From the NCBI GenBank assembly GCA_963715985.1, contig CAVQSP010000021.1, positions 70,864 to 134,863 of the forward strand: DNA of 64,000 nucleotides. The letters are read 5' to 3'. How positions within the stretch are numbered: position 1 is the first letter of the stretch; each line of letters begins with the position of its first letter. The position numbers were made by a program, and so were the translations under genes. Of this stretch, positions 14,947 through 48,073 are shown piece by piece. The DNA comes from an uncultured Thermoleophilia bacterium (GTDB lineage Bacteria > Actinomycetota > Thermoleophilia > UBA2241). The notes beneath the pieces are model-generated. The model had not been told where the DNA came from. It was given only the letters and a program-made list of their open reading frames with translations, and did not search any database.

Positions 14947-15591
14947 TCACCAGGTCGCGGGCTTCGCGAGTCTTCTCCCGTCGGCCGCCGGCACGGGATC
15001 GGGCAGCAGATGCCCGGGCAGGCTTCTGGGGCTGATCTTGAAGAGGGCGTCGGCGTGACTACGGAAGGCCTGGTTGGACCGATAAGGAGGGAAGAGGCAG
15101 TAGAGCTTGAGCTCCGGTCGCAGCCGGCGCGCCGCATCGAGGGCCGGCAGAAGATCGGTATCGCCAGACACGAGTGTGAGCGCGGCACAGTCCCGTTGAG
15201 CCGCGGACTCGACTATGGCGGCGGCGATCGCGACGTCCGTTTCCTTCTCCTCGTGCCGCCTGAGGAGCACCTCGCAGGTCCGGGAGCGGTAGCGGATGTC
15301 CTTGGACTTGAACACGCCCAGATGCGGTGTGACGCCGGTCGTGCGCAGGGCGTCGATGTAGCGCTCGTGACGGGCAACGGTGCCGGGGCGTTTGCGCTCC
15401 AAGTGATGGGCCAGTGCGCTGAAGTAGTCGGATATGCTCGAGTCTGGCCCGGGTCGATGGCTGAAGTGCCGAGCGGCAGAGCGACCTCAGGTCCAGCCAG
15501 CGGCAGTCGACGCCGGACTTCTCGCCGGGTCTCCGCGCATGGAATGGTAGACGTTGAAGCCATCCACCACGAAGCGGACAGTAGTTGACAT
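14947..15591 (-). CDS. NYN (LabA/DUF88 PIN-fold) domain protein; frameshifted
   Basis: FVVDGFNVYHS, YFSALAHH, EEKETDVAIA, LVSGDTDLLPA, KPATW. Confidence 0.85.
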
Positions 15592-15599
15592 TGGCCCCC

Positions 15600-15702
15600 G
15601 AGAAGAAGAAGCCCCCGGGACCGTAGCCCCGGGGGGACCAGGAAGCCGGAGCCTCGCTGGCGATGACTCGTTCATGCTGCCACCGTGGCCGGTGGCAGTC
15701 AA
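15600..15702 (-). ncRNA. promoter plus putative leader ncRNA/terminator of the NYN gene
   Basis: Minus strand: TTGACT-17-CAGCAT, then GAGTCAT, a hairpin with C(UCCG)G loop, a hairpin CCCCCGGGGC-TACG-GTCCCGGGGG and a CTTCTTCTT tail. Confidence 0.55.
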
Positions 15703-15760
15703 TGCGCAGAGCCAGAGTGCCGGTTGACGTTCGCGAAGGTCGGCTGCGGACGGGTCGTGC

Positions 15761-15807
15761 CCAGCACCTTCACCCCGTGCGCCTGCAGCCAGGCGGCGGT
15801 GGCGTCG
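15761..15807 (-). repeat. copy 4 of the DUF2075-gene 3' end
   Basis: Encodes DATAAWLQAHGVKVL. Confidence 0.85.
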
Positions 15808-15812
15808 TCGCT

Positions 15813-15885
15813 TTGACAGCCCACCGGCACGCACCTAAACTGACCTTGGTCGGGTATTGCGTAGCGGTCCCCGGCCACTTTCTTT
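15813..15885 (+). ncRNA. putative small RNA antisense to the DUF3800 gene end, with its own promoter
   Basis: TTGACA(15813-18)-17-TAAACT(15836-41); hairpin TGGTCGGG...CCCGGCCA (15847-15877) followed by CTTTCTTT. Confidence 0.6.
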
Positions 15886-16200
15886 GGGCAAGACGACCAG
15901 CCCCGCGCCCTGCCATTGACCTGATGGGCCGTGGCGCAGCTTCTTGCGGACCACCTCCAGGTCAGGCTTGGGTTCCATCCCAGCGACCCAACGGCCGAGA
16001 GGCGTGACGACGAGGTCGGCGATCTCGAGTCCGGCTCCCCCGCTTGCTTTGGTCTCGAACTCGAAGGATGCGACGCGGCGGCGGAGGACATCTGGCCTGA
16101 CGTAGCGAGTGCCGTTCAGGCGCAGCATGTCCCAGGCGACGGTGAGTTCGCGATCGAGCCGTTGGGTGCGTGGCTCCACGTGGACGCGGCAGCACCGGCC
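15835..16200 (-). pseudogene. DUF3800-family protein, C-terminal fragment
   Basis: AGLEIADLVVTPLGR...GLVVLPK resembles the DUF3800 GLQxADL..PIGR...GLK.FP tail; N-terminus missing. Confidence 0.6.
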
Positions 16201-16248
16201 ACGAGGCGGCACGGTGACAGGTGAGAGGTAGACGATGCGCGGCGCCGC

Positions 16249-16341
16249 TTGACCGGGCGCTCGTGCCGGGCATAATGAATCCACTGTTCCCGCGCTCCGG
16301 CGCGGGCCGCGAAGCCGCCTCCGGGCGGCTTCTGCTTTTCT
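16249..16341 (+). ncRNA. promoter plus putative leader ncRNA/terminator of the NYN gene
   Basis: TTGACC-16-CATAAT; hairpins CCCGCGC-TCCG-GCGCGGG and GAAGCCGCC-TCCG-GGCGGCTTC followed by TGCTTTTCT. Confidence 0.6.
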
Positions 16342-16368
16342 CCAGCGAACGTCAACTGAGGGGATGAC

Positions 16369-17022
16369 GTGGATTCAGGCCGTCTGCGCACCGGCGTGTA
16401 CATCGACGGCTTCAACTTCTACTACGCCTCGTTCAGGCGCGCAGGTTTCGCGGCGTACAAGTGGCTGGACCTGGTGAGGTTCTGCGACGTCGCACTGCCG
16501 CGTAACCATGTCGAGTTCGTGCGCCTGTTCACTGCGCTACTCGACCCAGCGCGGGGGAGGGGGGCCCAGCGTGCGCGTCAAGACGCCTACCTCGCGGCCC
16601 TGGCGACGCTACCGCGGCTCTCGGTGCACTACGGCGAGTTTGCAGAGCACTCTCGGAGGCTCCGCCTGGTCCGTCCACGCCCCGGCGGGCCCGCCACTGC
16701 AGAGGTGTGGGTGCCGGAGGAGAAGGGATCGGACGTCAATCTGGCGTCGCATCTTCTGCTCGACGGCTTCCGCGACGCTTGCGATGTCGCCGTAGTCGTG
16801 TCCAACGACGCCGATCTTCTCGAACCGGTCAGGATCGCGCGAGACGAGCTCGGTAAGACGGTCGGTGTGCTGAGAGTGGAGGGTGGTCAAAGGAAGTGCA
16901 TCTTCGGGGGCCGAGTCGATTTCGTCCGCACCGTGCGACACGCGCACTTCGCTGCGGCTCAGCTTCCCACAACGGTGCGAGATAGGCGTGGTCGGCTCAT
17001 TGCGAAGCCGGCCGAGTGGTGA
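16369..17022 (+). CDS. NYN domain protein
   Basis: VYIDGFNFYY, KWLDL, EEKGSDVNLASHLLLD, VVSNDADL, KPAEW. Confidence 0.9.
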   Translation: MDSGRLRTGVYIDGFNFYYASFRRAGFAAYKWLDLVRFCDVALPRNHVEFVRLFTALLDPARGRGAQRARQDAYLAALATLPRLSVHYGEFAEHSRRLRLVRPRPGGPATAEVWVPEEKGSDVNLASHLLLDGFRDACDVAVVVSNDADLLEPVRIARDELGKTVGVLRVEGGQRKCIFGGRVDFVRTVRHAHFAAAQLPTTVRDRRGRLIAKPAEW

Positions 17023-17831
17023 GGTACCGGCCTACTCCAGCACTTTCACCCCGTGCCCCTGCAGCCAGGCGGCGGTGGCGTCGAAGAGCGGGTCGGGCGG
17101 GACGAAGATCACTGCCGCGTCACGCCCCCGCGTCAGCAGCACCCGATAGGCGTTGACCCGCAGCCGGTACGGGTCCTTGACGTGCGAGGCACGCGCGTGG
17201 CGCTTGGCGTACTCGTTTGTCCAGGCCTCGCGGCCGTGCCGATCGGCGGCGCGGACGAAGTCGTTGCCCCAGGCGAGGAGCACGGCGTCGAGCTCCAGGC
17301 CCTGGGCGCCGAACTCGGTGACGCACTGCGTGAGGGTGCGGCAAGAGCGCTGGTCGCCGTCGCCCTCGCCGTACCACGGGCCGAGCTGGAGGCGCTGCGT
17401 GGCGTGCCAGCCGTTGGGGATGCCCCAGTGCGTCTCCAGGACCTTGTCGCGGGAGGAGGCGAGGAGGCCGTAGCGGGCGTCCGGCGCCTCGGCGTAGCGG
17501 TCGTAGAGATAGTGTGCGGTGTGCCTGCGGCGCCCCACACGTTGGCCAGACTACGTCGGCTAATCGTTGGCGACGTCGAGGTCGCGCGTCATGCGCAGGT
17601 GGTAGCCGTCCTTCTCGAGGCTGGCGGCGAGCTCGCGACCGTGCACCGGGTCGTCGCCGTCGAGCAGGAGGTCGACCCACTGGTCGAGGTCGTCGGCGAA
17701 GTGGAAGCGCAGCTCGACGGTGAGCTCGAGGGCCGCGTGCGACTGCGTCCGCGCGGCCAGCTTCCTGCCTTCCGCATCGTCACCGCTGAAGAACTCGCGC
17801 AGCACCGCCTCCGGCGCGTGCACGGTCCAGC

Positions 17832-18196
17832 CGCCCGGGTCGCCGGCCTTCTCCAGTGCCGTGCGCCACTGCCCGAGGCCGGCCTCCTCGCCCACGTGGA
17901 TTTCCTGCCCTGAGCCGATGAGCCCCACGAGCACGCACCAGCCGGGGATGCGCTCGCCGAAGTCCACGAACGCCTCGGGCTCGCTCTTGGGGAACGGCAG
18001 GCTGTGCTTGGCCGTGAACTGCTCGAGGTCCCAGGCGCGCTGCGCCTCGTCGTAGACGATGACGTGCTGCGGCGGCACCGCTTTGGTGTCCCCGAGGTAC
18101 TGCTTCACGTAATTCTTGACGTCGCGGAGATTGCTGTCCCCGAGGTACTGCTTCACGTAGTTCTTGACGTCGCGGACGAAAGTCTTGCCACCGCCA
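17832..18196. repeat. left copy of the ~330-bp DUF2075-internal direct repeat bounding the island (partner 35366-35682)
   Basis: Long identical runs, e.g. TGCCCGAGGCCGGCCTCCTCGCCCACGTGGAT and GAGCCGATGAGCCCCACGAGCACGCACCAGCC, occur in both copies. Confidence 0.85.
18087..18176. repeat. 48-bp-period tandem duplication
   Basis: TGTCCCCGAGGTACTGCTTCACGTA(A/G)TTCTTGACGTCGCGGA twice; encodes [13 protein letters not shown] x2. Confidence 0.85.
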
Positions 18197-18272
18197 CAAC
18201 CTGGCCGGGTGGTGGGGGAGCGTCGCCCGCCGTGTTGTGGGTGCCGTCTCTCTGTCGTGTCATAATCGTCGC

Positions 18273-19350
18273 GTGGCTTCCTTCCGCTTCATCGACCTCT
18301 TTGCCGGCATAGGCGGCATGCGTCTTGGCTTTGAGCCCGTCGGTGGTCGGTGCGTCTTCACCAGTGAGTGGAACGAGAAGGCCCAGCAGACCTACCGCTC
18401 GAACTTCGGTGATGAGGAGATTGCGGAGACATCACCCAGATTCCCGCCGAAGACATCCCGGCTCACGAAGTTCTGCTTGCCGGCTTCCCCTGTCAGCCCT
18501 TCTCCATAGCGGGCGTTTCCAAGAAGAACGCCTTGGGCGCGTCGCCACGGCTTCTGTATCCCACGCAGGGCACGCTCTTCTTCGATGTGGCGCGCATCAT
18601 CGCCCATCATCAGCCGAAGGCGTTCCTGCTCGAGAACGTCAAGAACCTGACGTCTCATGATCGCGGGAACACCTTCCGGGTGATTCTGAACACCCTTCAG
18701 AAGGAGCTTGGCTACTCCATCACTTGGCGAGTAGTCGACGCGAAGGGGTTTGTGCCCCAGCATCGAGAGCGCATCCTGATTGCGGGATTCCGTGAACCGT
18801 CTGACTTCGGTTTCGACATAGTTGACATTCCAGATCCTGATTCTGGGCCCCGGCTGCCGATCTATCCTCATCCGGAGAACGGCACCGAGCCCGTCGAGCC
18901 GCGGTACACCAGGGGCGACAACGCCACGGTGCTCGACAAATACACTCTTACTCCTGGACTTTGGGACATCTGAGGGCTAGACGCGGCCAAGCATCGCGCA
19001 AAGGGCAATGGCTTCGGGTTTGGACTGGTGGGGCCGGACGACGTTGCTCGTACCCTGTCTGCCCGCTACTACAAGGATGGATCGGAGATTCTGGGTCCGC
19101 CGCGACCCCGATCGGCCGCGCCGTCTCACCCCGCGAGAATGTGCCCGTTTGATGGGCTTCGACCGAGCCGAGCGGGAACCGTTCGTCATCCCTGTTGTCT
19201 GACACACAGGCCTACCGGCAGTTTGGCAACGCGGTCGTCGTACCAGTCATTGGGGCGGTAGCTGCGGCGATGGCACCGTTCGTCACTGACGGCAACACGC
19301 TAGGCCTGTTGGCGCGTCGAGCCGTCGTCCCTGAGCAGCTCTTCGTTTGA
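18273..19350 (+). CDS. dcm: DNA (cytosine-5)-methyltransferase, Dcm-like; frameshifted
   Basis: [65 protein letters not shown]. Confidence 0.92.
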
Positions 19351-19369
19351 GCGCACGCGGCAGCCGGCC

Positions 19370-19845
19370 GTGACTGATATCACCTCTCCTGAGAAGCGCA
19401 GCCGGATGATGTCGACCATCCGCGGGAAGAACACGCGCCCGGAGATGATGGTGTGACGTGCGCTGTTTGAACGTGGCTTTCGCTATCGGTTGCACGCACG
19501 GTGCCTGCCCGGAACGCCTGATCTGGTTTTCGCTCGCTTTCGAGCTGCAGTCTTCGTTCACGGGTGTTTCTGGCATGGTCACGATTGCTCGTATTTCCGA
19601 TGGCCGGCGACCCGACCAGAGTTCTGGCGGGCAAAGATCACGAGGAATCAGGCAGTGGATCAGGTCGCGCGTCTGGCCCTTCGTGAGTCAGGCTGGAGGG
19701 TATTGACTGTGTGGATGCGCGCTCCGAGATTGCTCTGATGAACAGAGACAGGCCGTGTACGACGCCGCGGCTGACTGGCTGCGCGGCGACACGGCCGAGC
19801 TGCGAGCTCGAAGGCGACCTCGGGGGGGAGAATCCAGAATGAACG
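19370..19845 (+). CDS. vsr: very short patch repair endonuclease; frameshifted
   Basis: RSRMMSTIRGKNTRPE, LPGTPDLVF, VFVHGCFWHGH, FWRAKITRN, GWRVLTVW. Confidence 0.9.
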
Positions 19846-21174
19846 AGACCCTTAACTCTGGACAACCTGATGGCGATGTTGCGCGAGAGGGGGTGTCTCC
19901 GCGTGTTTGCAAAGCCGCTGGCCGCCAACGACAACTCCAAGAACCAAGTGTACTTCGGCGGAGGGTTTCACGCGCTGAACGTAGTCCCTTACGGAGACGC
20001 ACTTGCGTCGCGATCGGGCAAAGGCACCGTCTTCAAGGCGCCTGTGGATTTCTGGTGGCTCTCGTCTGATGGGAAGGCGTGCCAAGCACCGGGCGCACAG
20101 CTGATTCTCTATCCTCAGTACCCCGAAGTCCGCTTCTCGGGCTTCCTCCATGGCTGTTCGGAAGCGCCCTCCAGCCTCATGGCCTCTCGGGAGGAGGGCA
20201 GAGTCCTTGTGTTCGGCACTCGGAGTGACGGGCGTGTCTTTGCGTGGGTGGGATCCAGCGAGTCGGCTGTTGCACGGAACCTGGCGAAGCGACGGCGATT
20301 GGGCTACTTCAGGGGAACCGGTGTTTTCGAGGAGCTGCCCGGGCAGAGACCTTCGTCGGAGGTGCCGGCCTTGAGGTGCAACTGTTGAGGAGCTCGGACG
20401 TATTCACAGACTCGGTGGATCGAGGCGAAGCGTCTGCGCGCAGAATGGGAATACAAGTGTCGTGCCTGGTCGGAACTCCGGCGGGAGTACGCTGAGGCAG
20501 AGCTCGGAGTTGCGGCGAACAGCGTGGTGGGGCCCGACTTCCTCGGCTATGAGGTCAAGCAGTACAAGGTCAGCAACTTCAGCCGCCCGTCGTCTGGAGG
20601 GCCCATCACCCTGATGACGCCTGAGCCGACAGGTGGACTGTACCGGGATGAGGGCGTCGAAGCGTTTGTGCGGATCTACGGCTACCCGGACAAGAGCCGC
20701 AGACCGGATCGCATCAACTTCGGCGGTGTTCACCGAGCCCGCACAAGAAGGTGGATGTGTAACGAACGGGACTGACGCTGACGCTCGTGGGCTGGGACTC
20801 CGAGCGAGGTCTCATCGTCGATGCCCAAGGAGGAATCGCACTTCTGGATGATGATCTCACGGTGGCGGCCATCTGGTACTACTCTGGTTGATTTCCCACT
20901 GGAACAAGAAGCACGACCGAGCTGTTTACGTCCCGTCGATGAGATCCGCCCCGGAACCCGCCCGATACCGCTATGGGGATCTCGTGCGGATGAGAAGGAG
21001 CCGATTTCCTCCGGGTCCTGAAGGCATTCGATTCTGGAGCCCTACTGCTCGATCCTGGCATCAAGGTGGAGAGCGCCGTACAGCGCCCAAGGTCAAGCGG
21101 CGGAGTCAGTTTCCGTCCAGTCAGCTGACGTGGGCGCCTTGTATGAGTCCATGAGGACGGTAGGCGTTCTCTAG
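19839..21174 (+). CDS. MvaI/BcnI-family restriction endonuclease; frameshifted
   Basis: NDNSKNQVYFG, YPQYPEVRFSGFL, PDFLGYEVKQY, ITLMTPEPTGG, RINFGG, HWNKKH..AVYVPS, KRRSQF. Confidence 0.8.
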
Positions 21175-21321
21175 CACAGGCCCCGTCTACCCCCGGTCCT
21201 TTCTTCCCCTCCCCTTCGTCAACCGTATTAGAATCCCCATAGGATCGTGGCGGGCCGTTGGAATGCTCGGCTGTCCAGCTAGTGTCGTGGGGACGATCTT
21301 GGGGGTGGGGGCCGTGCTTGA

Positions 21322-22955
21322 ATGATTCCGACGACGCCTACTCGTTCGACGCGAAGCTCGGCGGAGCGCCGGGTCTTCTCCATGTTGTCCGAGGTCGACC
21401 TTGTGGCCCAAGCTGGTGCTTCCATTCGCTGAATCTCTCCGAGCATGAGTACAAGTTGGTCGGGGAATTCGACTTCGTGCTCTTGAGTCCGCTGGGACTC
21501 CTCGTTCTTGAGGTCAAGGGAGGGGGGGTCGACTGTCATGACGGGGTCTGGATCTTCACCGACCGCTTCGGAGTCGAGCACCGTCGCAACGAGAGCCCGT
21601 TCGCACAAGCTCGGTCCGGGATGTTCTCCCTGCGCAGCGGCTAGAAGTTGAGCTTGGCCGATCGGCGGTCCAGGGTCTGCCGTTCGGTTACGGCGTGATG
21701 CTGCCGGACCAGCCGTTCAAGATCCCGTCAGTCGAGTGGTCGCGCGAAATGGTGATTGACAAAGAGGCGCTGGGAGCCGGGTTGCTTCAGGAGAAGCTCC
21801 ACTGGCTGTTCACGTACTGGCGGGAGAAGAACGGCGTGCGACGCGACTGTTCCGCCGACAATCTGCGTCCGCCGTGGCACAGCTGCTCCGCCCGGACTTC
21901 GATCCATCCCGGATCTCCATCACAGGCTGGAAGACCTGGATCAGCGCATGCAACGTCTGACCGACGAGCAGTACGAACGCCTGGACGCGTTCGAAGGGAC
22001 CCCACGAATCCTGTGCATGGGTGGCGCAGGCACCGGCAAGACGTTCATCGCGGCGGAGATGGCTCGTCGCCACGCAGCGGCTGGGGACAGAGTGTTGATG
22101 ACCTGTGCGAGCCCGGTGCTTGCTGCATACCTGCGTGCTCGGCTGTCCTCATTCGGAATCGACGTGATGCCGCTGGAGCAGGCGCTGGGCGAGCTTCCGC
22201 AGGGCGAGCCCTACGATGTCCTTCTCCTAGACGAAGCCCAGGACGTGCTGGACTTGGAAGTCCTGTTTGCGTTTGACGCCTGCTCCGCGAGGGCTCGAGC
22301 ACGGCACCTGGCGGATGTTCTGTGATGTGAACAACCAGAGCGCCCTCTCGGGCGGATACGACCCAGAGGCGCTGGAGTACTTGAAGCGGCTTGGCGCTGT
22401 CGGCGAGCTCAAACGGAACTGTCGCAATACGCACGAGATCGTGTTGCAGACAAAGCTCCTCACAGGCGCGGACCTCGGTACCGCAAGTGCTGGTCACGGT
22501 TTGCCGGTGACCACTCCGGTTCTACGAAGGGCCAGAAGAGCAGCTCGAACAACTCGAGCGACATCTCGCCGGACTTGCGGAGGAGGGTGTCGGTCGGCGA
22601 AATCACTTTGCTCTCTCCACTTCCTTCGAACAAAGCATGGCCTCGAGCCTTCCGCGGCGATGGCAGCGTCGCCTTCGAAGGTGGACCCTGCTCTCGCCGC
22701 GTCGTGGCCGGTCAGCGACCTTTCTTTCGCCACGGTGGGTGACTTCAAAGGCCTGGAGAACAGGTTCATTTGCCTGCTCGACATTGCACAGTCTTGCGAG
22801 GACGAGCCGTTGGCACTCTCCCTGCTCTATGTGGCGATGAGCAGGGCCCGCGCCGGACTCTGGGTGGCCATGCGATTCGGCGCTTGAAGCCACGGTCGAG
22901 GAGATCAGCATGCGCAATCTTCCCCTCTGACTCCCGATCTGGAGGTCGTCGATGA
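21322..22955 (+). CDS. NERD nuclease + SF1 helicase-like ATPase; frameshifted
   Basis: FHSLNL...GEFDFVLL...LVLEVKGG, GGAGTGKT, DEAQD, RNCRNT, FKGLE, LLYVAMSRAR. Confidence 0.82.
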
Positions 22956-25900: not shown

Positions 25901-26178
25901 CCCCGTCTCGACGAAATCGTCACGGAGGATGACGTTCGCGGACAGTGCGGAGGCGTTGGCGGTTCGCGCGGAGCTCGATGAGCTCGTGGATCGAATGGCT
26001 CGACTGGGCTGATGAGGCCAAACGCGAGGGCAAGAAGCTCTACTACTCGACGAGATCGACGAAGAACCACTACTCGCTCCTGCGCAATTTTGGAGCGTCA
26101 GGTAACGGCTGGGAGACGCTCCACTCCATGAGGAACGTGGATCGTCAGTGCAATATCTCGGTCAAGGGGGAGGACTGA
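22952..26178 (+). CDS. drmA: DISARM DrmA-like SF2 helicase; many frameshifts
   Basis: WRPFQLAF, LLWFPTGGGKTEAYLGL, TVDKLA, QDELHLLSGPLG, ATNMLSVGVDI, SEYIQATSRVGR, RDRSHYE, SMRNVD. Confidence 0.85.
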
Positions 26179-39893: not shown

Positions 39894-40005
39894 CTGAAGC
39901 CATGGCGGCGCCGGTCGCGTCGGCATCCGGCGCGTGAGGATGTGCGTCGTCGGCTGCTGCGTTGTCAGGAACGTCACCCAGAATGGTGACATTTGCAGCG
40001 GATCC

Positions 40006-40170
40006 TTGACCGCGGCGGTGATTCCCGCATACTGCGAGGGTCACCCCCGCGAGCAGGATTCGCGGGTCCCTCGGGGTTGCGACTCTGGGGGCTTCTTCTG
40101 TTGGGGGTCCATCGTCAGCCGCACGGTCTCCCGCGTAGGCGGCTTCAACGTCTGCGACTCGGTCCTCAAT
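40006..40170 (+). ncRNA. orphan NYN promoter/leader RNA followed by a decayed NYN 5' stub
   Basis: TTGACC-16-CATACT; GGGTCACCCCCGCGAGCAGGATTCGCGG... homologous to 47365-47435; followed by V..GFNVCDS resembling VDGFNLYHS. Confidence 0.55.
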
Positions 40171-40248
40171 GCGAGGAGACGGGCAGGCCGGGCTCGGACG
40201 ACATGCTCTCAACGCGCCCCGGGCGGCAGTCGGCTTGGCTGCCGGGCT

Positions 40249-40713
40249 TCAGGTCGCGCGAGTGCCCTTCGAGGCTGGGTCGGTGCGGGCTTGGGGCCCG
40301 GAGGCCAGGACCGCGGCAAGCTCTGGTCGCACGGCCAGCAGCCGCATCAGCCGGTCCGCTGTCGCGCCCTGGACGACCGTGCCTGTCTCCCACCTCACGA
40401 CCGTCTTCGGTCCGGTGCCGAGGATTTGCTCCAGGCCGGCTTGCGAGACCCCGAGTGTCGCGCGCAGGGCGCGGATCTCGTCGGAGGTCATGAGGCCGTG
40501 CGTCGCGCGGACTCCATCCACGGCTTGTCTCTGCGCGGCTCGCATCGCGCTCGCGTCGAGGTAGACCTCGCCGCAGCTCTCGCAGCGACCGTGCTCGACA
40601 CCCTGGACGTCCACGCGTTCGCGGCGCACCTCGATCGCGAAAGCGGCGCGCGAAGCGGTCACGTGTCCGCCGCACTCGCCGCAGGTCGCAGGGAACATGG
40701 TCACCGCCTCCAC
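40249..40713 (-). CDS. mqsA: MqsA-family antitoxin (Zn finger + Xre HTH)
   Basis: CGECGG...CESCGEVY; IRALRATLGVSQAGLEQILGTGPKTVVRWETG. Confidence 0.88.
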   Translation of the reverse strand: MEAVTMFPATCGECGGHVTASRAAFAIEVRRERVDVQGVEHGRCESCGEVYLDASAMRAAQRQAVDGVRATHGLMTSDEIRALRATLGVSQAGLEQILGTGPKTVVRWETGTVVQGATADRLMRLLAVRPELAAVLASGPQARTDPASKGTRAT

Positions 40714-40717
40714 GCGC

Positions 40718-41032
40718 TCAGTGTGGTGCGCCGTCCCAGCAGCACGACCACACGTTCACGACCACCTCGTCGTCGTCGATGTACAGCTTCACGTACCAGT
40801 CCTCCGCCTGCCAGGTGACGATGTACTCATCGGCGGACTGCGCGTTCCGCAGCCTCGTCGAGCCGATCCACCTGCCCCGCAGCGGGAGGGTGCTCAGGAT
40901 GCCGGTGATCGTCTTCAAGGCGTCGTAGTCGTGATTCGTGAGCCACGAGATGACCCGAAGCGTGGCGACGACCTTGCCTTGCCGCGCCAGCTTGGCGACG
41001 ACGAAGGGCTCGTAGACCGGACCGCTCGGCAC
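40718..41032 (-). CDS. mqsR: MqsR-family toxin
   Basis: ~100 aa directly upstream of mqsA; ADEYIV...WYVKLYID...VVVNVWSC. Confidence 0.7.
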   Translation of the reverse strand: MPSGPVYEPFVVAKLARQGKVVATLRVISWLTNHDYDALKTITGILSTLPLRGRWIGSTRLRNAQSADEYIVTWQAEDWYVKLYIDDDEVVVNVWSCCWDGAPH

Positions 41033-41277
41033 CTGGCCACCCGTCAGAGATACGGTAGCATCATGCTACCGATAGAGTCAACGGTCCTGACGTCGCGTTG
41101 CGTCTGCATGGCGTCAGAACGGTAGGCGTACCGAACACTGCCCGCAAGGTTGACCGAGGGTCACGATCGCTGGTGACCTGGCGGGCATCGCCCGCAGCTG
41201 AATCCACCCCTGTCCGGCGCGGATGGACCCGGGTCGCTTGAGGCTCCGGTGCCGGGTCGAGAGGTCCGGCCGGCCCT

Positions 41278-41761
41278 TTCTTCTGCGCCGCCGGTCGGTG
41301 TCCCCCTGCAGCCCGTGGTCAACCAGGAGACGAGCCACGAAGAGGTCCAGTGGAACCTTCTGGAGATGGGCGCGTCCTTGGGCCTGGACGTCTGGGTGGC
41401 GCGGAACGATCGGAACAAGTCCTTCGGCGGTCACGCCTTCCAGGATGCTCCGCACACCACCGCGGTCTACTCGGGCCTGCTCCGCATGTCGGACCTCATC
41501 ACGCTGCATCCGAACCTGATGATCCGCCTTTACATCGTCGCGCCTGACGCCCGCAAGTCGAAGGTCATGAACGAGCTGGTGCGTCCGACCTTCGATGCGC
41601 TTGAGCCGCCGCTTCGCACGATCTGCGGGTTCATCCCGTACTCGCGGCTCTTCGCCGAAGCCGACACCGTGCGTCGGTACGGCGACCGGCTGAAGCCGGG
41701 GTTCCTCAGCGGCATCGCGGAGTACGCGCCGGACCTGGATGAGGGGTACCGGTCCGCCTGA
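41278..41761 (+). pseudogene. C-terminal fragment of a PD-(D/E)XK nuclease (EVE-associated type), with internal in-frame deletion
   Basis: HEEVQWNLLEMG..LGLDVWVARNDR, HTTAVYSGLLRMSDL, LYIVAP; lacks the IDVLW...AAFEVE segment present at 43645-44242. Confidence 0.7.
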
Positions 41762-41774
41762 GGTCGCTTTCCGA

Positions 41775-42279
41775 CGGACTGTGTCTATCGCGCCAACTCC
41801 TAAGTACTGACGGCTGCTTCTCGCTGCGCCAACCTCGGTACGTCGACCAGACGCGGCGGGGGTTCGGCCGGCGCATGCGCGAGCACTTCTCGAGCATGCT
41901 GTCGCTGGAGTATCTGCCCCACGACCCGGACGCGCTCGCCGCAGGCGACAGCGCGACGCTCTGCAAGGGGATCGGCGCCCTCCCTTGGCCGCTCCGCATC
42001 CCCGACACCCTCGACAGGCTGCGGTCGCTGACGTCCCAGCTCGTCGGCACCATCAAGCTCCTGAGGCTCCACGTTGCGCCGCTGGAGGGTGACGTGCACC
42101 TGTTCAATCGCGCTGAGGGCATGATCGGCCGTCACTTCAAGGACCACCTGCAGGTGACGACGTTCTTCGGGACCGGGGTGCGCCTGCCGGTGGCCATTCC
42201 AGGTGGCCAGCGGCTGAGGCTGCGACTCAGCCTCGCCGCGGGCGCTTCCGTCGTCGGATTCCCTACGGAGATCGTGTAG
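41775..42279 (+). pseudogene. GIY-YIG-like nuclease gene remnant (copy B, most complete C-terminal part)
   Basis: PRYVDQTRRGFGRRMREH resembles YVGxT...RxxEH. Confidence 0.5.
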
Positions 42280-42338
42280 CCATGGATGTCGCCGGCGGTG
42301 TGACCCGGGGCCGCTCCGTCGTCTTCATCGCCACGTCC

Positions 42339-42374
42339 CATCGTCCACCGCCGCGTCGCATCGTCACTCTTGAG
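42339..42374 (+). other. bipartite inter-cassette motif, copy 1
   Basis: CATCGTCCAC-cgccgcgtcgc-ATCGTCACTCTTGAG. Confidence 0.75.
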
Positions 42375-42496
42375 CAGCGAGCACCCGCGCGCGAGAGTCG
42401 AGCCATGTTTCGTTCTCGTGTCAAACCCCAACTGTCGCTGTTGATGGTCATCCAACAGGGCGACCGCAACGTCACCCATCGACGCGTTCTTCGCGC

Positions 42497-42580
42497 TTGC
42501 GCATCGGCCCCAGAGCGCTACACTCACGTCAATCCTCCCCGCCGTCCGGGTCATGCCGCACCGGCGGGGCTTTTCTTTGG
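42497..42580 (+). ncRNA. promoter plus putative leader ncRNA/terminator of the NYN gene
   Basis: TTGCGC-16-TACACT; GTCAATCCT-CCCCGCCG...GGGTCAT...CGGCGGGG-CTTTTCTTT. Confidence 0.6.
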
Positions 42581-42589
42581 CCCCCACGC

Positions 42590-43216
42590 ATGATGCCGCT
42601 GCGCGACCTCAGGGTCTGCGTCTTCCTGGACTGGCAGAACCTCTATCACCGTGCCCGTGAGGCGTTCATGGAGCCCGGAGCACCGGCGGCGGCGGGGCAG
42701 GTGGACCCGCTCGCCCTCGGACGACTGTGCGCGTCAAGGGTCGCCGGGGGTGTGCTCACTGGAGTGCGGGTCTACCGGGGGCGTCCCAGTCGCCACCATG
42801 ACGTGCGCTCCTACTCGGCCTTTCGAAGGCAGACGGAGCGCTGGCTACGGGACGGCGACGGCCTCGTCTCTGTGGCGGCACTGGACCTGCGGTATCCGCA
42901 CGAGTGGCCTTTGCGCCCAGCACAGGAGAAAGGCGTCGACGTGGCGCTCGCTGTGGACTTCGTGCTGATGTGCGTCCGTCGCGAGTACGATGTCGGTATC
43001 CTGTTCTCCGGCGACACAGATCTGGTTCCGGCGCTCAGAGCTGTGGTGGCGCTGCGTCCGGGCGAGCCTCCGGCGTGTGAGGTGGCGGCGTGGGCGCCGC
43101 CGGCCGGACGACCGCGGTCTCTTGCGGTCCGCCGGATTCGTCTCAAGCGCCACCTGCTCGGCGAGGCGGATTTCCGGGCGGTGGCTGATCCGACCGACTA
43201 CACGCGCAGGCCCTGA
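42590..43216 (+). CDS. NYN domain protein
   Basis: VFLDWQNLY, VRVYRG, QEKGVDVALAVD, FSGDTDLVPA, EVAAW, DPTDY. Confidence 0.9.
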   Translation: MMPLRDLRVCVFLDWQNLYHRAREAFMEPGAPAAAGQVDPLALGRLCASRVAGGVLTGVRVYRGRPSRHHDVRSYSAFRRQTERWLRDGDGLVSVAALDLRYPHEWPLRPAQEKGVDVALAVDFVLMCVRREYDVGILFSGDTDLVPALRAVVALRPGEPPACEVAAWAPPAGRPRSLAVRRIRLKRHLLGEADFRAVADPTDYTRRP

Positions 43217-43259
43217 GCGTGTCGACAGCAGCTACAGTTCCGCGGAGGCCTCTGCGCGC

Positions 43260-43635
43260 CCTGAGCCCGAGATCGTGCGCGACTGCGGCGGCTATCTCTG
43301 GACGATCCCGCTCATCGGTCGGGAGTGGCCCTGGTATGTCCGCCAAAACGCGGTGCGGCTGCGGCCGGCGGATGCGCGAGCACATCTCCCGCATGCTGTC
43401 GCTGAAGGATCCGCGTCTCCATGAACCGGACGCGCTGGCCGCCGGCGACAGCACGCCGCTCTGGAAGGGCGTCGGCGGCCGCAGGTCGGGTCTCTCTATC
43501 CCCGGGACCCTCGAGGGCTGGAGGCGCTGACGGCCGCTGGTCGCACGCATGGTCAGGCTCGTGCGGTTCCACGTCGCGCCCCGGGATGGCGGCGCGCACT
43601 TCTTCGAGCGCGTCGCGGGCATGATCGGCCGCCCC
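43260..43635 (+). pseudogene. GIY-YIG-like gene fragment (copy C)
   Basis: GGYLWTI...PWYV.Q, RMREHISRMLS, PDALAAGDS, RFHVAP, GMIGR. Confidence 0.55.
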
Positions 43636-43644
43636 GACCTGTCG

Positions 43645-44242
43645 TTCCTCCTGCGCCGCCGGTCGGTGTCCCCCTGCAGCCTGTGGCCAACCAGGAGACG
43701 AGCCACGAAGAGGTCCAGTGGAACCTTCTGGAGATGGGCGCGTCCTTGGGTCTGGACGTCTGGGTGGCGCGCAACGACCGCAACAGGTCCTTCGGCGGCC
43801 ACGCGTTCCAGGATGCTCCGCGCCTGAGAGAAGCGCTTCCTCGGCAGTTCGAGCCCCAAGTCATGTCCCTCATCGAGCACATCGACGTGCTCTGGCTGCG
43901 GGGGAATCGCGTGGAGGCGGCGTTCGAGGTCGAGCACACCACCGCGGTCTACTCCGGCCTGCTCCGCATGTCGGACCTCATCACGCTGCACCCGAACCTG
44001 ATGATCCGCCTGTACATCGTCGCGCCCGACGCCCGGAAGTCGAAGGTCATGAACGAGCTGGTGCGCCCGACCTCGATGCGCTCGAGCCTCCGCTGCGCAC
44101 GGTCTGCGGGTTCATCCCGTACTCGCGGCTGTTCGCCGAAGCCGAGACCGTGCGCCGGTACGGTGACCAGCTGAAGCCGGGGTTCCTCAGCGGCATCGCG
44201 GAGTACGCGCCGGACCTGGATGAGGGGTATCTGTCGGCCTGA
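43645..44242 (+). pseudogene. C-terminal half of a PD-(D/E)XK nuclease (copy 2)
   Basis: IEHIDVLWLRGNRVEAAFEVEHTTAVYSGLLRMSDL; near-identical to 41278-41761. Confidence 0.72.
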
Positions 44243-44311
44243 GGTCGCTTCTCGGCTTCTCTGACCGCGCTGGTCGCCGGTCGTGTCTCTCTATCCCCAA
44301 GATCCTCGTGC

Positions 44312-44347
44312 CATCGTCCACGCGCCCCACCGATCGTCACTCTTGAA
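44312..44347 (+). other. bipartite inter-cassette motif, copy 2
   Basis: CATCGTCCAC-gcgccccaccg-ATCGTCACTCTTGAA. Confidence 0.75.
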
Positions 44348-44468
44348 GGCCGCCTGCTTCGGCGCGGAGTCGGAACATGGACATTCTCGGCATCCAGACC
44401 AGTCTGCCCTCGCCTCCTCAGCCGCGCGGGGCCGAGCGCAGTGTCACCCTCCGGCCGGCGGCCCGCGC

Positions 44469-44552
44469 TTGCACGTGTGCCGGCAAGCGGTACATTGTCG
44501 TCAATCCTCCCCGCCGATTTGAGTCATTCCGAACCGGCGGGGCTTCTTCTCT
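44469..44552 (+). ncRNA. promoter plus putative leader ncRNA/terminator of the NYN gene
   Basis: TTGCAC-16-TACATT; GTCAATCCT-CCCCGCCG...GAGTCAT...CGGCGGGG-CTTCTTCT; homologous to 42497-42580. Confidence 0.6.
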
Positions 44553-44572
44553 AAGATCCCAGCATCCTGATC

Positions 44573-45190
44573 GTGAGCGAAGCAGGATCGCAGCGGGTCG
44601 TCGTCTTCCTCGACCACCAGAACGCGTACCATCGCGCCCGTGACGCATTCTGTGCTCCTGCTGCACCCGCGAGGGACAGTAGGTCGATCCTTGGCGCTCG
44701 GCCAGCTTCTCTGCGCCCGCGTCCCTGGGCGCCGACTTGCGGCGTGCGCGGACCTGGGCATCCCAGCCAGCGTCGCGACGCACGATCCTCCGCCGCGTAT
44801 GTCCGCCAGACCGACAGGCAGCTGGGGCGTGGCGGGGGACTCCTCACTCTGGTCGCGCGTGATCTGCGGTATCCACCGGACTGGCCGCAGCGGCCGGCCC
44901 AAGAGAAGGGCATCGATGTCGCTCTCGCGGTCGACCTCGTGATGACGGTCGCGCGACGAGTGCGACGTCGCCATCGTGTTCTCCAGCGACACCGACCTGC
45001 TGCCGGCGCTCGAGGCATGCTCGCCCTCCGGCCGGGCGAGCCGCCGGCCTGTGAGGTCGCTGCGTGGGCGCCGGCAGCGGGGCGGCCTCGCTCGCTGGCG
45101 GTTCGCAATGTGAGGCTCCGGCGCCATCTCCTCAGCGGGGCCGATTTCCGGGCCGTGGCCGATCCCGTGGACTACACGCAAGGTCGGTGA
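44573..45190 (+). CDS. NYN domain protein; frameshifted
   Basis: VFLDHQNAY, QEKGIDVALAVD, FSSDTDLLPA, DPVDY; paralog of 42590-43216. Confidence 0.8.
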   Translation: MSEAGSQRVVVFLDHQNAYHRARDAFCAPAAPARDSRSILGARPASLRPRPWAPTCGVRGPGHPSQRRDARSSAAYVRQTDRQLGRGGGLLTLVARDLRYPPDWPQRPAQEKGIDVALAVDLVMTVARRVRRRHRVLQRHRPAAGARGMLALRPGEPPACEVAAWAPAAGRPRSLAVRNVRLRRHLLSGADFRAVADPVDYTQGR

Positions 45191-45194
45191 TGCT

Positions 45195-45400
45195 GCCGTC
45201 GCCTATCCCACGAACGGTCAAGCTCCGGCGGTTCCTCGTCGGGTCATTGAGGGCAACGCGTCCGCTTCGACCGCCCCCCCGGCATGATCGGCCGATACTT
45301 CAAGGACCCCCCCGCAGGTGACGGCGTTCTTCGGGACGGGCGTGCGCCTGTTGGCAGCGATTCCAGGGGTCGGTTTCACACCGGCAGTGACACGGATTGG
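45195..45400 (+). pseudogene. GIY-YIG-like gene C-terminal fragment (copy D)
   Basis: GMIGRYFKD, VTAFFGTGVRL..AIPG. Confidence 0.5.
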
Positions 45401-45421
45401 CCCCGACCTCCTTGTCGGCGG

Positions 45422-45456
45422 CATCGTCCACACCACACCGCCTTCGTCATTCTGAG
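45422..45456 (+). other. bipartite inter-cassette motif, copy 3
   Basis: CATCGTCCAC-accacaccgcc-TTCGTCATTCTGAG. Confidence 0.65.
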
Positions 45457-45579
45457 GCTCCGAGCACCGGCTTCAGAGTTGGGCCGTACCCGTCGGTTCT
45501 ACGCGACGTTGCTGCGGATATTGCATTTGCTTCATTTAGCACTACCATGAGGTGAGGCTGTCTCGAGAGGGGGTGAGTG

Positions 45580-46050
45580 ATGGAGGCATCGCCTACAAGA
45601 CCAGCTATCGGTCCACCGGACGTGTGTTCTGCCCGGACGCCGGCGAGGCGCCCGCCTTCACGCTCCTCGATCGCAGCCTGCGCGCTGCGAACGAGGCCGC
45701 CGGGCGGCCGGTAGAGCTCGCGTTCGCGTCCGGGCAGAGCGTCGTGTGCCGGACAGCGTCGCCAAGGTCCTCGCGATCGTCGTCCGGGAGATGGCCGCCG
45801 GCAACGGTGTCGCGGTCGTCCCCGTGCAGCACGAGCTCACCACCCACCAGGCCGCCGCTCTGTTGCACGTCTCACGCCCGCATCTCATCCGCATGCTCGA
45901 CGAGGGCCGCCTGCCGTACCGACGCGTAGGTACCATCGCCGCGTCCGGCTCGACGACGTGCTGGCTCACCGCGCCCGAGGAGAAGCGGAACGCGAGGTCT
46001 TGCTCACGCGCCTCGCTCAGGACTCCCAGGCTCTCGGGCTGGAGTTCTGA
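45580..46050 (+). CDS. excisionase-like HTH antitoxin; frameshifted
   Basis: ELTTHQAAALLHVSRPHLIRMLDEGRLPYRRVGT; directly upstream of a PIN gene. Confidence 0.8.
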
Positions 46051-46053
46051 GCC

Positions 46054-46596
46054 TTGCCGACCGCGCTGCTCGACGCCTGCGTGCTCTACCCGATGGGCCT
46101 GCGCAACACGCTCCTCAGCGTCGCGCAGGCCCAGGCCTACCGCCCTCTCTGGTCCGCGCAGATCCTCGCCGAGGTGCGCAATGCCCTCGTGCGGTCTGCG
46201 CTGGGCGTGCAGCCCGCTCGCGCGGATCGTCTGCTCGCCACGATGCGCGCAGCATTCCCTGAGGCGATGGTGACCGGCCACCTGCACATGGTGCCCGAGA
46301 TGGGCAACGAGCCGGCCGATCGGCACGTCCTCGCGGCGGCCGTCGCCGGGAGAGCGAACGGCATCGTGACCTTCAACCTGAGGCACTTCCCCAGCAGTGT
46401 CTGTGCGCCGTTCGGCGTCGAGGCCCGCTCGCCTGACGACTTCCTCACTGCTCTGCTCGGGGAGAGCGCCGATCGCGTGCTCGAGGGACTGCAAAGGCAG
46501 GTCGCGCGCTACGACGCGCCGCCCATGACGAGGTTGAGCTCGTGTCACGGCACGAAGCACGCCTTCCTGAGTTCGTCTCGGCTGTCCGGGCCCTGA
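46054..46596 (+). CDS. PIN domain protein (VapC50-like)
   Basis: ALLDACVLYP, WSAQILAEV, DRHVLAAAV, IVTFNLRHFP, PDDFL. Confidence 0.88.
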   Translation: MPTALLDACVLYPMGLRNTLLSVAQAQAYRPLWSAQILAEVRNALVRSALGVQPARADRLLATMRAAFPEAMVTGHLHMVPEMGNEPADRHVLAAAVAGRANGIVTFNLRHFPSSVCAPFGVEARSPDDFLTALLGESADRVLEGLQRQVARYDAPPMTRLSSCHGTKHAFLSSSRLSGP

Positions 46597-46768
46597 TGGG
46601 CTGAGCCGGGACTCCGAGACGCCGGCAAGCCGTGTCCGCCGTGGCCATCCGTGCCACTCAGCCCGCCATTCGGCTGTGCTGAGGGAGTGCGCGCGCGATC
46701 GCCGGGTGCATGCGCGAGAGGATGTCCGCGACCTCGGTGCCCCGAGCCCGCGACCCCGGGAGGTCCCC

Positions 46769-47286
46769 ATGGGCGAGCTCCTCGCCGTCACCTGCGACTC
46801 CTGCGGCGCGCCGATGGTGCCCAACGTGAGCACCATGGACGAGCACGGCTGCGGCTGGATCTGCCTTGATCCCGACTGCCCGGAGCTGGCCGCCGAGGAG
46901 CTGGAGGCCGAGGACCTGGTGGAGGCGGGCGTGCCGACAGAGCTCGCCCGCCGTCTCACGAAGCTCATCCTTCGCCGAGCGGACGAGGCGGACGCGCCCG
47001 CGAGTGCGCGCGAGCGGCGCAGGCCGATCTCGCGCGTCTTCGCCAGCATCTTCTCGAGGCGCAGCGGCTCGCGAGCGAGGCGGCAACCCTCGCCGACCGT
47101 CTCGCCGGCTGCCTCCGCGTCTCCTTCACGAGCGACGACTTCGCCGCCGGACAGCAGGCCAGGGCGGACCTCGCCGTCGCCTCCGCCCTCAGCCGGCTGG
47201 CCGCGCGCACCGCCGCCGAGGCCTGCGCGTCCGTCGCCGGCGTCAGTCCGGACCTGCCGGGGTTGCTCGCCACGAGGGACTCGTGA
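46769..47286 (+). CDS. Cys-rich (Zn-ribbon) coiled-coil hypothetical protein, copy 2; frameshifted
   Basis: GGAGG RBS, MGELLAVTCDSCGAPMVPNVSTMDEHGCGWICLDPDC; duplicate of 38967-39484. Confidence 0.55.
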
Positions 47287-47331
47287 CCGCGTTCTCTCGT
47301 CGTCCACGGGGTTGACGTTCCAGCCGTACCG

Positions 47332-47432
47332 TTGACCCCGCCGGAGTCGGGCTGCATAGTGGGTGGGTCACCCCCGCGAGCAGGACTCGCGGCCCCCCCG
47401 GGGTCGCGACCCCGGGGGTTTCTTCGTTTCTG
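47332..47432 (+). ncRNA. promoter plus putative leader ncRNA/terminator of the NYN gene
   Basis: TTGACC-17-CATAGT; GGGTCAC, hairpin CCGCGAG-CAGGA-CTCGCGG, hairpin CCCCCGGGGTC-GC-GACCCCGGGGG, TTTCTTCGTTT. Confidence 0.6.
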
Positions 47433-47440
47433 GGGCCAAT

Positions 47441-48073
47441 GTGAACCGCGTGGTTTACCTCGTCGACGGCTTCAATCTGTACCACTCTCTGCGCGACGTG
47501 GAGAGAGACCACGGTCGGGCGCTGCGCCGGCTCGACCTCGGTGCGCTTTGCGGTGCCCTGGCGCACGCCGTGCCGGGAAGGTGCGAGGTCTCGGGCATCG
47601 TGTACTTCAGTGCCCTGGCTCGCCACATGGAGGCGTCGCGGCCGGGCACAGTCGCCCGACACCTGCGCTATCTCGATGCCCTGCAGGCCACCGGGGTGGA
47701 GACCGTCCTCGGCCATTTCAAGCGTCGGCAGGTGCGGTGCCCCTACTGTGGGAGGGTCCGCGACCGCTGGGAAGAGAAGCAGACCGACGTCGGTATCGCC
47801 GTGCGACTCGTGAGGCTGGTCGCGACGGGCGCGTGCGAGCGGGTCTTGGTGATGTCGGGAGACACCGATCTCGTGCCCGCCATCAGCGAGGCTCGTTCGT
47901 CGTGGCCGGCGAGCAGAGGCGTCGCCTTCCCGGCGCGAAGGGCGAACGCGCAGCTGCGTGCCGTCGCGGACTGGACCATCAACCTCGACGCGGGCTCGTA
48001 CCTGAGGCATCAGCTTCCGGCGGTCGTGCTGGGCCGGGACGGCGCGGAGATACGGCGACCCGTCGACTGGTGA
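47441..48073 (+). CDS. NYN domain protein
   Basis: YLVDGFNLYHS, VYFSALA, CPYCG, EEKQTDVGIA, MSGDTDLVPA, RPVDW. Confidence 0.9.
   Translation: MNRVVYLVDGFNLYHSLRDVERDHGRALRRLDLGALCGALAHAVPGRCEVSGIVYFSALARHMEASRPGTVARHLRYLDALQATGVETVLGHFKRRQVRCPYCGRVRDRWEEKQTDVGIAVRLVRLVATGACERVLVMSGDTDLVPAISEARSSWPASRGVAFPARRANAQLRAVADWTINLDAGSYLRHQLPAVVLGRDGAEIRRPVDW

Follow-up and report, generated by a model that had tools for sequence, protein, structure and literature searches.

NYN units are composed of a sigma-70-type promoter, one or two GC-rich hairpins with a pyrimidine- or U-rich tail, and a gene for a ribonuclease (RNase) of the NYN family. Six of these units are found in the window, a 64,000-nt stretch of the genome of an uncultured Thermoleophilia bacterium (C21:70864-134863; assembly of 4.35 Mb, 22 contigs, 88.8% complete). 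The hairpin is conserved across phyla, covaries in the class with one hairpin, is specific to NYN genes and is sometimes found apart from the 5' end of the gene that it accompanies. A preliminary description of the window had noted the arrangement and read it as a candidate RNA-antitoxin system. The observation is confirmed and generalized here, and the interpretation is plausible on sequence grounds. The short RNA may be the dedicated partner of NYN, present in excess over the RNase and inhibitory in the manner of toxin-antitoxin (TA) modules of type III. A probability of about 45% is given to this reading.

The six NYN units

All six units share one order. A TTGnnn box and a -10 hexamer, 16-17 nt apart, come first, then one or two GC-rich hairpins and a pyrimidine- or U-rich tail, and last a Shine-Dalgarno (SD) sequence ahead of the start codon. 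Two-hairpin leaders (hairpins HP1 and HP2) precede open reading frames (ORFs) of the VDGFN type, and one-hairpin leaders precede ORFs of the LDxQN type. The features are as follows.

N1 leader unit: 15592-15702, minus strand; TTGACT, 17 nt and CAGCAT at 15674-15702; SD GGGGG
N1 leader hairpins: HP1 at 15637-15661, HP2 with pyrimidine tail at 15601-15635, minus strand
N1 ORF, VDGFN-type: 14947-15591, minus strand; at least two frameshifts in this assembly by three-frame translation
N2 leader unit: 16249-16368, plus strand; TTGACC, 16 nt and CATAAT at 16249-16276; SD GGGGA
N2 leader hairpins: HP1 (UCCG loop) at 16289-16306, HP2 (UCCG loop) with U-rich tail at 16311-16341, plus strand
N2 ORF, VDGFN-type, intact, 217 amino acids: 16369-17022, plus strand; Pfam NYN, E = 9.4e-7
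N3 orphan leader unit: 40006-40111, plus strand; TTGACC, 16 nt and CATACT at 40006-40033
N3 leader hairpins: HP1 at 40046-40066, HP2 with tail at 40068-40102, plus strand; HP2 stem kept through three G-U wobbles
N3 remnant, decayed VDGFN-type ORF: 40112-40260, plus strand; only a GGFNV stretch is recognizable, no Pfam match
N4 leader unit: 42497-42589, plus strand; TTGCGC, 16 nt and TACACT at 42497-42524
N4 leader hairpin, one long bulged hairpin with U tail: 42537-42578, plus strand; 63.8 bits with covariance model R1 (see below)
N4 ORF, LDxQN-type, intact, 208 amino acids: 42590-43216, plus strand; Pfam NYN, E = 3.3e-10
N5 leader unit: 44469-44572, plus strand; TTGCAC, 16 nt and TACATT at 44469-44496
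N5 leader hairpin with tail, inner stem degraded: 44509-44552, plus strand; 40.2 bits with R1, against 63.8 for N4
N5 ORF, LDxQN-type, several frameshifts: 44573-45190, plus strand; no Pfam match
N6 leader unit: 47332-47440, plus strand; TTGACC, 17 nt and CATAGT at 47332-47360; SD GGGG
N6 leader hairpins: HP1 at 47373-47392, HP2 with U tail at 47395-47431, plus strand
N6 ORF, VDGFN-type, intact, 210 amino acids, with a CPxCG insert: 47441-48073, plus strand; Pfam NYN, E = 8.6e-10

The promoters of the two-hairpin units are near the sigma-70 consensus, and the -35 box of N4 and N5 is weaker (3/6 positions). NYN promoters account for three of the 11 promoter-like matches in the window. A GC-rich stem and U-rich tail are located 9-36 nt ahead of the start codon in all six units, and this stem-loop and tract give the leaders the form of predicted intrinsic terminators. 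Consensus scans of the whole 64 kb returned four terminator-like stems of at least 9 pairs, and all four are in NYN leaders. With a window G+C of ~68%, the leader sequence alone would not make the case, which rests on comparative data rather than on thermodynamics.

The preliminary description had five NYN genes and a decayed sixth sharing one layout. The layout is present at all six, with three intact ORFs (N2, N4, N6), two frameshifted ones (N1, N5) and one remnant (N3). Its motif G(A/G)GTCA, placed in five of six leaders, is reduced to GTCA in five and the full hexamer in three. Its statements that leader type tracks NYN subfamily and that stems are kept while loops vary hold true in the window and in homologs elsewhere.

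One-hairpin leaders

The one-hairpin class accompanies LDxQN-type NYN genes. A profile of ten N4-type proteins was searched against one genome per species, and the best 80 of at least 465 relatives form the gene-first set. These relatives are found in Thermoleophilia, Frankia, Microbispora, Herbidospora, Modestobacter, Geodermatophilus, Kitasatospora, Microbacterium, Nocardioides, and Acidimicrobiia, and further in Dehalococcoidia and other Chloroflexota, Sorangium, and an acidobacterium. Cultured carriers include Herbidospora cretacea NBRC 15474, Modestobacter muralis DSM 100205, a Microbispora strain, and Sorangium cellulosum So0157-2. The motif spans Actinomycetota, Chloroflexota, Myxococcota, and Acidobacteria. 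A simple script detected the hairpin in 80 of 88 upstream regions, among them both window copies and at least two duplicates.

The consensus from 76 distinct sequences reads cAAUgCU, CCCCGYC, GUCC, a variable inner hairpin, (G/C)AAC, U, GGCGGGG, and a U-rich tail. Pairing holds in 91% of the cells of this alignment, and both sides change in 11 of the 14 pairs. The observed values are reached by none of 500 shuffles, and six slid controls do not come close. Three pairs of the basal stem are invariant across the 76 sequences, and one stem position is a conserved mismatch, unpaired in 40 of them. The spacer between the stem arms varies from ~14 to 40 nt. Over the same set the NYN proteins are 40-50% identical; with the basal stem near-invariant, constraint is stronger on the base of the hairpin than on the enzyme.

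The position of the hairpin is also fixed relative to the promoter. Among the 76 leaders examined, 37 had a promoter that passed the match thresholds of the script, and in 35 of these the -10 box ends 12-14 nt before the stem. This distance places the transcript start ~5 nt before the hairpin; across the hairpins, the predicted start lies ~5-25 nt upstream. Such a short gap leaves no upstream sequence for an antiterminator fold in this class.

R1 is a covariance model built from the 76-sequence alignment. In the window's own genome it matches the N4 and N5 leaders only. In the 80 gene-first loci it gives 78 matches in 76 loci, with the leader position occupied in 72 of the 80. Among 151 genomes of the class, 26 were matched. 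Nineteen of the matches at 36 bits or more had loci available, and 18 are directly ahead of an LDxQN-type NYN ORF, 14 of them intact and four broken (L128, L130, L149, L150). The 19th (L133) is an orphan. Matches below 30 bits are ordinary terminators, except for one distant low-GC NYN locus. The order of promoter, short structured RNA, intrinsic terminator, and RNase gene in the preliminary description is real and gene-specific. Its remark that a protein antitoxin partner is missing extends beyond the window: no recurring protein neighbor was found within 1.5 kb in the 80 loci.

Two-hairpin leaders

The two-hairpin class accompanies VDGFN-type NYN genes. Homologs at E <= 1e-15 are present in 11 of 401 phylum genomes sampled, the window's own counted. 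Relatives in the genus carry the same leader, and their HP1 shows compensatory changes (GCGAG/CTCGC versus ACGGG/CCCGT). The N1 leader has a homolog with compensatory changes in relative L022, and the N2 leader has two-hairpin homologs in L018, L007, and L017. Within the window, the N3 and N6 leaders are 87% identical over 61 nt. An exact-stem search of 401 genomes of the class found the stem only in the window's family, in 22 genomes: the window's own and 21 of the 79 others sampled from the family. Of its 27 instances, 13 precede a full NYN ORF, seven a partial one, and six none, and one is at a contig end.

More distant homologs, ~28% identical and located in small low-GC genomes, keep a promoter of TTGACA, 17 nt, and TATAAT ahead of two hairpins that are unrelated in sequence, followed by a U tail and an SD. 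IMG/VR contributed 112 relatives with 65 distinct upstream regions. A terminator-like hairpin is found 6-89 nt ahead of the start in 53 of the 65 (52 within 6-72 nt), compared with 28 of 130 for other ORFs in the same loci. The two-hairpin parse worked in 46 of the 53 homology-anchored regions. The MAFFT alignment of 44 two-hairpin leaders (A4) is out of structural register, and support for the class comes from hairpin detection against controls. Because of this, and because an ORF-anchored control discriminates weakly (see below), the class is less rigorously supported than the one-hairpin class. In principle, HP1 could also take part in alternative folds.

Two side observations concern translation. 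In the predicted folds of the N6 (47367-47440) and N3 (40040-40111) leaders, a C-run at the 5' end pairs with the G-rich SD and encloses both hairpins, a pairing that could mask the ribosome-binding site on read-through transcripts. In many VDGFN-type relatives (L005, L006, L015, L365, L371, L377, L380, and others) no ATG, GTG, or TTG is found at the homologous start. These relatives, and also the window at 40104-40125, have an in-frame ATC after the SD (caATCGTCAAC), which may be a rare AUC start that lowers NYN translation further.

NYN proteins

The NYN domain (PF01936), named in the preliminary description, is found above the 24.2-bit cut-off in N4 (41.1 bits), N6 (39.7), the N1 fragment (32.5), and N2 (29.9). 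The N1 match is restricted to the 14947-15402 piece (E = 1.5e-7), and the genome search shows one TGA inside it. N5 is 56% identical to N4 across frames (tblastn). Alignments A1, for N4, and A3, for N6, both contain conserved acidic residues, with invariant D, E-K-x-x-D, and D-x-D columns. The A1 profile has no match among PDB sequences, and the A3 profile matches 2qip_A weakly (E = 2e-4). LabA-like NYN proteins (PF01936, COG1432; PDB 2QIP) share the domain with N2, N4, N6, and the N1 fragment. In the available text of one source (PMC5499597), the function of the LabA-like group is listed as unknown, and neither nuclease studies nor an RNA partner are described; an older proposal based on gene neighborhoods is tRNA or rRNA processing.

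The VDGFN-type proteins match HEC-09, a profile of 203 positions in PADLOC. Residues 1-210 of N6 align with positions 1-202 (E = 4.4e-40) and residues 7-217 of N2 with positions 3-202 (E = 2.6e-32). N4 has a weak, partial match limited to residues 111-172 (E = 6.3e-9). HEC-09 is a single-gene NYN candidate from defense loci (Payne et al., bioRxiv 10.1101/2024.01.29.577857), and the accessible part of that description covers the protein without mention of a leader RNA. Pfam and PADLOC scans of the NYN proteins returned NYN and HEC-09 only, with no ToxN, CptN, or TenpN. A proteobacterial-looking NYN locus (L164) had no megablast match in Escherichia coli genomes.

Units apart from the 5' end of the gene

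Some RNA units are detached from the 5' untranslated region (UTR) of the NYN gene and are still beside it. Three Herbidospora species have a unit of promoter and hairpin just downstream of the stop codon of NYN. Conservation covers its two promoter boxes (-35 and -10), its basal stem, and its U tail, and its flanks diverge. The 5' leader hairpin is lost in H. solisilvae and degenerate in H. cretacea. Other gene-first exceptions are a divergent unit (L074), an extra tandem unit (L109), and a unit 300 nt upstream with a different hairpin in between (L058). Further arrangements are divergent (L303), convergent (L277, L306), or downstream (L293, L298). In total, about nine loci have the RNA unit off the 5' UTR and next to an NYN gene. 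A trans-acting RNA gene would allow such an arrangement.

A second, motif-first set consists of 80 of at least 119 loci on metagenome contigs. It contains 48 canonical loci (47 by script, one by eye), two that are too short, eight with NYN elsewhere (truncated, upstream on the same strand, convergent, or divergent), and 22 without NYN. Four of the 22 are chance matches in coding sequence, and the other 18 have extra conserved 5' flank outside the search pattern. Orphans alone prove little, and the adjacent but uncoupled arrangements are the better argument for a trans-acting RNA.

Viral contigs have 12 motif matches: one canonical, three by chance, one at a locus end, and seven orphans. In an AT-rich phage (L359:6910-6942), the interval between the genes for the large terminase and the portal contains the motif together with its conserved 5' flank and its U tail, and no NYN gene is nearby. 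The inner stem of the phage motif covaries between related phage contigs (L359, L353, L356).

Copies of the motif are also observed beside stable RNA genes. One is located between tRNA-Met and tRNA-Gly in a four-tRNA cluster (L283:365-398). Of the other two (L291, where the motif comes just after 1858-1944, and L276), one directly follows a tRNA-like gene and one comes after the 3' end of a transfer-messenger RNA (tmRNA)-like gene. The copies in L283, L291, and L276 have no promoter of their own.

A proposed RNA-protein module

Each unit is proposed to be a self-contained RNA-protein module. The sigma-70-type promoter would start a transcript ~5 nt before a very stable hairpin. In both classes, the last stem and its U-rich tail would act as an intrinsic terminator, and the majority of transcripts would stop there, giving an RNA of ~50-75 nt. 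The SD and the NYN ORF would be present on read-through transcripts only. Termination ahead of the ORF means that the RNA would greatly outnumber the RNase. NYN would recognize the base of the hairpin, made up of a 7-bp C/G stem, G-C and U-A pairs, a C-A or C-C mismatch, and a single bulged pyrimidine. The bound RNA, as inhibitor or as decoy substrate, would keep the RNase from acting, and release would follow once the supply of RNA stops, for example when a phage shuts off transcription. The RNA is the only co-occurring component, its base is constrained beyond the needs of termination, and promoter and terminator look strong. The simplest account of these three features is that the RNA is a product recognized by NYN.

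Several points weigh against an inhibitory RNA. Termination in vivo, excess of the RNA, RNA-protein binding, inhibition, toxicity, and a role in defense are steps that we infer. The conserved structure is the terminator itself, and any terminator stem covaries. Single-sequence folding gives modest z-scores for the six leaders (-0.6 to -2.6). A stricter two-hairpin control, automated and anchored on the longest ORF, separates weakly: 29 of 57 NYN regions and 43 of 147 regions of other ORFs score; with long stems the counts are 12 of 57 and 13 of 147. Uncoupled units are a minority, about six of 78 matches in the gene-first set and eight of 80 loci in the motif-first set. The copies beside tRNA and tmRNA genes may serve simply as terminators. 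Two orphan-carrying genomes, 90% and 92% complete, have no PF01936 match anywhere; an orphan can therefore be a relic rather than a trans-acting gene. Being ~6 times shorter than the ORF, a leader would by chance also survive longer than a gene in decay. In N5, leader and ORF are decaying together, which fits an element that acts only in cis as well. In the available text of Payne et al. (bioRxiv 10.1101/2024.01.29.577857), HEC-09 gave no protection against any phage tried, the only published test.

The leader terminator would also explain this lack of phenotype if HEC-09 was cloned with its native upstream region, where the terminator would stand between any upstream promoter and the gene. 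An inhibitory RNA partner could belong to a large undescribed class of RNA-neutralized toxins or abortive-infection systems, extending through Actinomycetota, Chloroflexota, Myxococcota, and Acidobacteria and, for the two-hairpin type, low-GC hosts. Phage hairpins such as that of L359 would then be decoys that keep the host NYN off. This wider extension is unlikely on present sequence evidence; it makes the stand-alone phage hairpins an anti-defense hypothesis. Such decoys would use the same trick as pseudo-ToxI of phage PhiTE.

Alternative explanations

A leader that acts only in cis is a less likely but serious rival. It would affect the NYN mRNA alone, as an attenuator (constitutive or factor-dependent) that holds expression very low, as a protective 5' stem-loop, and possibly as a site where NYN cuts its own message, with the short RNA as a by-product. 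Such negative autoregulation is known for RNase III and RNase E. The leader position directly before the SD in 72 of 80 loci fits this explanation, as do the joint decay of the N5 leader and ORF, orphans as relics in genomes without NYN, and the predicted C-run and SD pairing in N6 and N3. The many VDGFN-type relatives without a standard start codon would fit layered damping of expression. However, an alternative antiterminator fold has no room, and termination does not need a stem base whose sequence is invariant across phyla. A consensus-like promoter followed by a strong terminator would probably be wasteful if the short RNA were useless. Moreover, units are kept downstream of, divergent from, and convergent to NYN genes, and in phages, and one Herbidospora species without the 5' hairpin has kept the downstream unit.

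A partner RNA that does not inhibit is quite unlikely. The RNA would be a cofactor, an activator, a specificity element, or a physiological substrate, e.g., one whose processing state reports infection or stress. The evidence for a dedicated RNA-protein pairing applies equally here, and the copies in the tRNA cluster and beside tmRNA recall the processing proposal found in the available text of PMC5499597. Nothing specific favors this explanation, however, and it leaves both the terminator between RNA and enzyme gene and the frequent broken genes unexplained.

Hitch-hiking is very unlikely. The hairpins would be terminators or insulators carried on a mobile cassette, or DNA-level recombination hairpins, and their conservation would reflect recent horizontal transfer. 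The modules are indeed patchy, multi-copy, and located in islands, and R1 matches below 30 bits are generic terminators. A near copy of N2 HP2 and its tail is found at 10307-10334, directly after the stop codon of an unrelated ORF (9642-10280), and looks like an ordinary terminator. However, proteins at 40-50% identity with an invariant stem base indicate selection rather than recency. A role at the RNA level is indicated by the U tail and the fixed distance of 12-14 nt to the -10 box, an arm spacer of ~14-40 nt is unsuited to a DNA-binding dimer, and no matching hairpin follows the stop codon of N4 or N6.

Other candidates were rejected. An integron attC-like cassette is ruled out by a hairpin located between promoter and gene, with none 3' of the stop codon; a leader peptide by the lack of a start codon or SD near the 5' end; and a dimeric DNA operator by the variable arm spacing. 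Mimicry of a tRNA acceptor or of the 16S 3' end is a loose resemblance. A riboswitch or classical attenuator in the one-hairpin class lacks upstream sequence for an alternative fold, and units also occur outside 5' UTRs.

Genomic setting

The NYN units are located in a TA and defense island. Four of the five PF01936 matches in the source genome are within the window. The named nearest relatives of its NYN genes are metagenome-assembled genomes of Thermoleophilia, in the Actinomycetota. The neighboring features are listed below.

17032-18156, minus strand: DUF2075/Schlafen-like helicase fragments, PADLOC PDC-S41 match
40249-40713: MqsA-like antitoxin
41249-41761 and 43683-44174: restriction-enzyme-like fragments
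46054-46596: PIN_3 protein
48269-49018: PDC-M05A-like ORF
48921-49349: SAV_6107-like HEPN protein
49627-50251: HigB and helix-turn-helix (HTH) partner

C-terminal remnants of the PDC-S41 helicase are found on both sides of N1 (14870-14925 and 15760-15800, minus strand), and the split copy adjoins N2. In relative L022, a helicase C-terminus is directly upstream of an N1-type unit. These repeated remnants suggest either that the helicase pairs with NYN or that recombination occurred repeatedly.

The two groups of NYN units are separated by a stretch at ~18000-38000 with a G+C of 0.60-0.65. It contains no ORF above 352 amino acids and no ORF above ~80 amino acids with high G+C at third codon positions. 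Ten of its longest ORFs had no Pfam match above curated cut-offs.

A bipartite element, CGTCCAC-14 nt-TCGTCA(C/T)(T/C)C, is present in five copies on the plus strand, each at the head of a small cassette.

42342-42369: cassette of N4
44315-44342: cassette of N5
45425-45452: cassette of PIN_3 and N6
48154-48181: cassette of PDC-M05A and HEPN
49543-49570: cassette of HigB and HTH

A loose pattern that allows other spacings gave 12 matches in the 4.35-Mb genome, six of them on the window contig including these five. In relatives, variants with CGTCAAC are found 100-250 nt upstream of NYN genes. The element resembles an extracytoplasmic function (ECF) sigma promoter (AAC, ~16 nt, CGT).

In the genomes of relatives (G019, G427, G522, G756), NYN units form tight arrays spaced at 0.5-2 kb, in which the two leader classes are mixed and many ORFs are broken. 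In G019, PF01936 has 10 matches and R1 seven.

Comparison with known systems

No match to Rfam 15 was found at the gathering threshold in the whole window, and the comparison suggested by the preliminary description ends with neither leader class matched. In E-value mode, 39900-48200 gave four weak matches, three of them outside the leaders. CRISPR-DR9, the weakest (17 bits, with a gathering threshold of 45, E = 10; 44500-44546, minus strand), overlaps the N5 hairpin. At the gathering threshold, 20 IMG/VR loci returned tRNAs only. The two leader types are therefore candidate RNA motif classes absent from Rfam 15. The RNA-motif surveys found in the literature do not mention NYN, and an NYN gene with an RNA partner was not found in the literature searched, which did not extend to the supplementary motif lists (Weinberg 2017; Payne Table S2 and constructs). 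The "NYN" of PMC12557735 is a codon pattern and is irrelevant.

Among RNA motifs, the closest conceptual parallel is the group of DUF3800-associated RNAs. As given in the available text of Weinberg et al. 2017 (PMC5737381), DUF3800-I to -XI, drum, and skipping-rope RNAs are several unrelated shapes tied to one protein family and have Rho-independent terminators after them. The NYN units differ in protein family and in RNA structure.

Type III loci join a constitutive promoter and a short non-coding RNA to an intrinsic terminator and the gene of an endoribonuclease, occasionally with the RNA downstream of the toxin, according to the accessible part of Blower et al. 2012 (PMC3401426). A terminator before the toxin gene is a criterion for type III in the same text, and a predicted terminator precedes the start codon in all six NYN units. 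The units resemble ToxIN, CptIN, and TenpIN in their promoter-RNA-terminator-RNase order, in the absence of a protein antitoxin, in their location in defense islands, and in the occasional downstream RNA. They differ in having one or two hairpins, themselves the terminator, instead of a repeat array, and an NYN/PIN-like fold instead of ToxN, CptN, or TenpN. Tandem Repeats Finder (minimum score 30) detected no array in any leader; it gave nothing in 14800-17100 and two rows in 39800-48200, both outside the leaders. Without tandem repeats and a ToxN-like toxin, the NYN units are not type III members. The RNA-antitoxin reading in the preliminary description is partly supported: the architecture, an RNA conserved above its protein, the lack of a conserved protein partner, and the detached units speak for it, and the repeats and ToxN-like protein of type III are absent.

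LabA-like NYN proteins are among the commonest bacterial PIN-like nucleases, and a conserved, gene-specific RNA is the first handle on their control. If the RNA neutralizes the RNase, RNA antitoxins would extend past the three ToxN-like families to a PIN-like fold and a non-repetitive RNA, and RNA-antitoxin systems would reach phyla where type III is hardly known.

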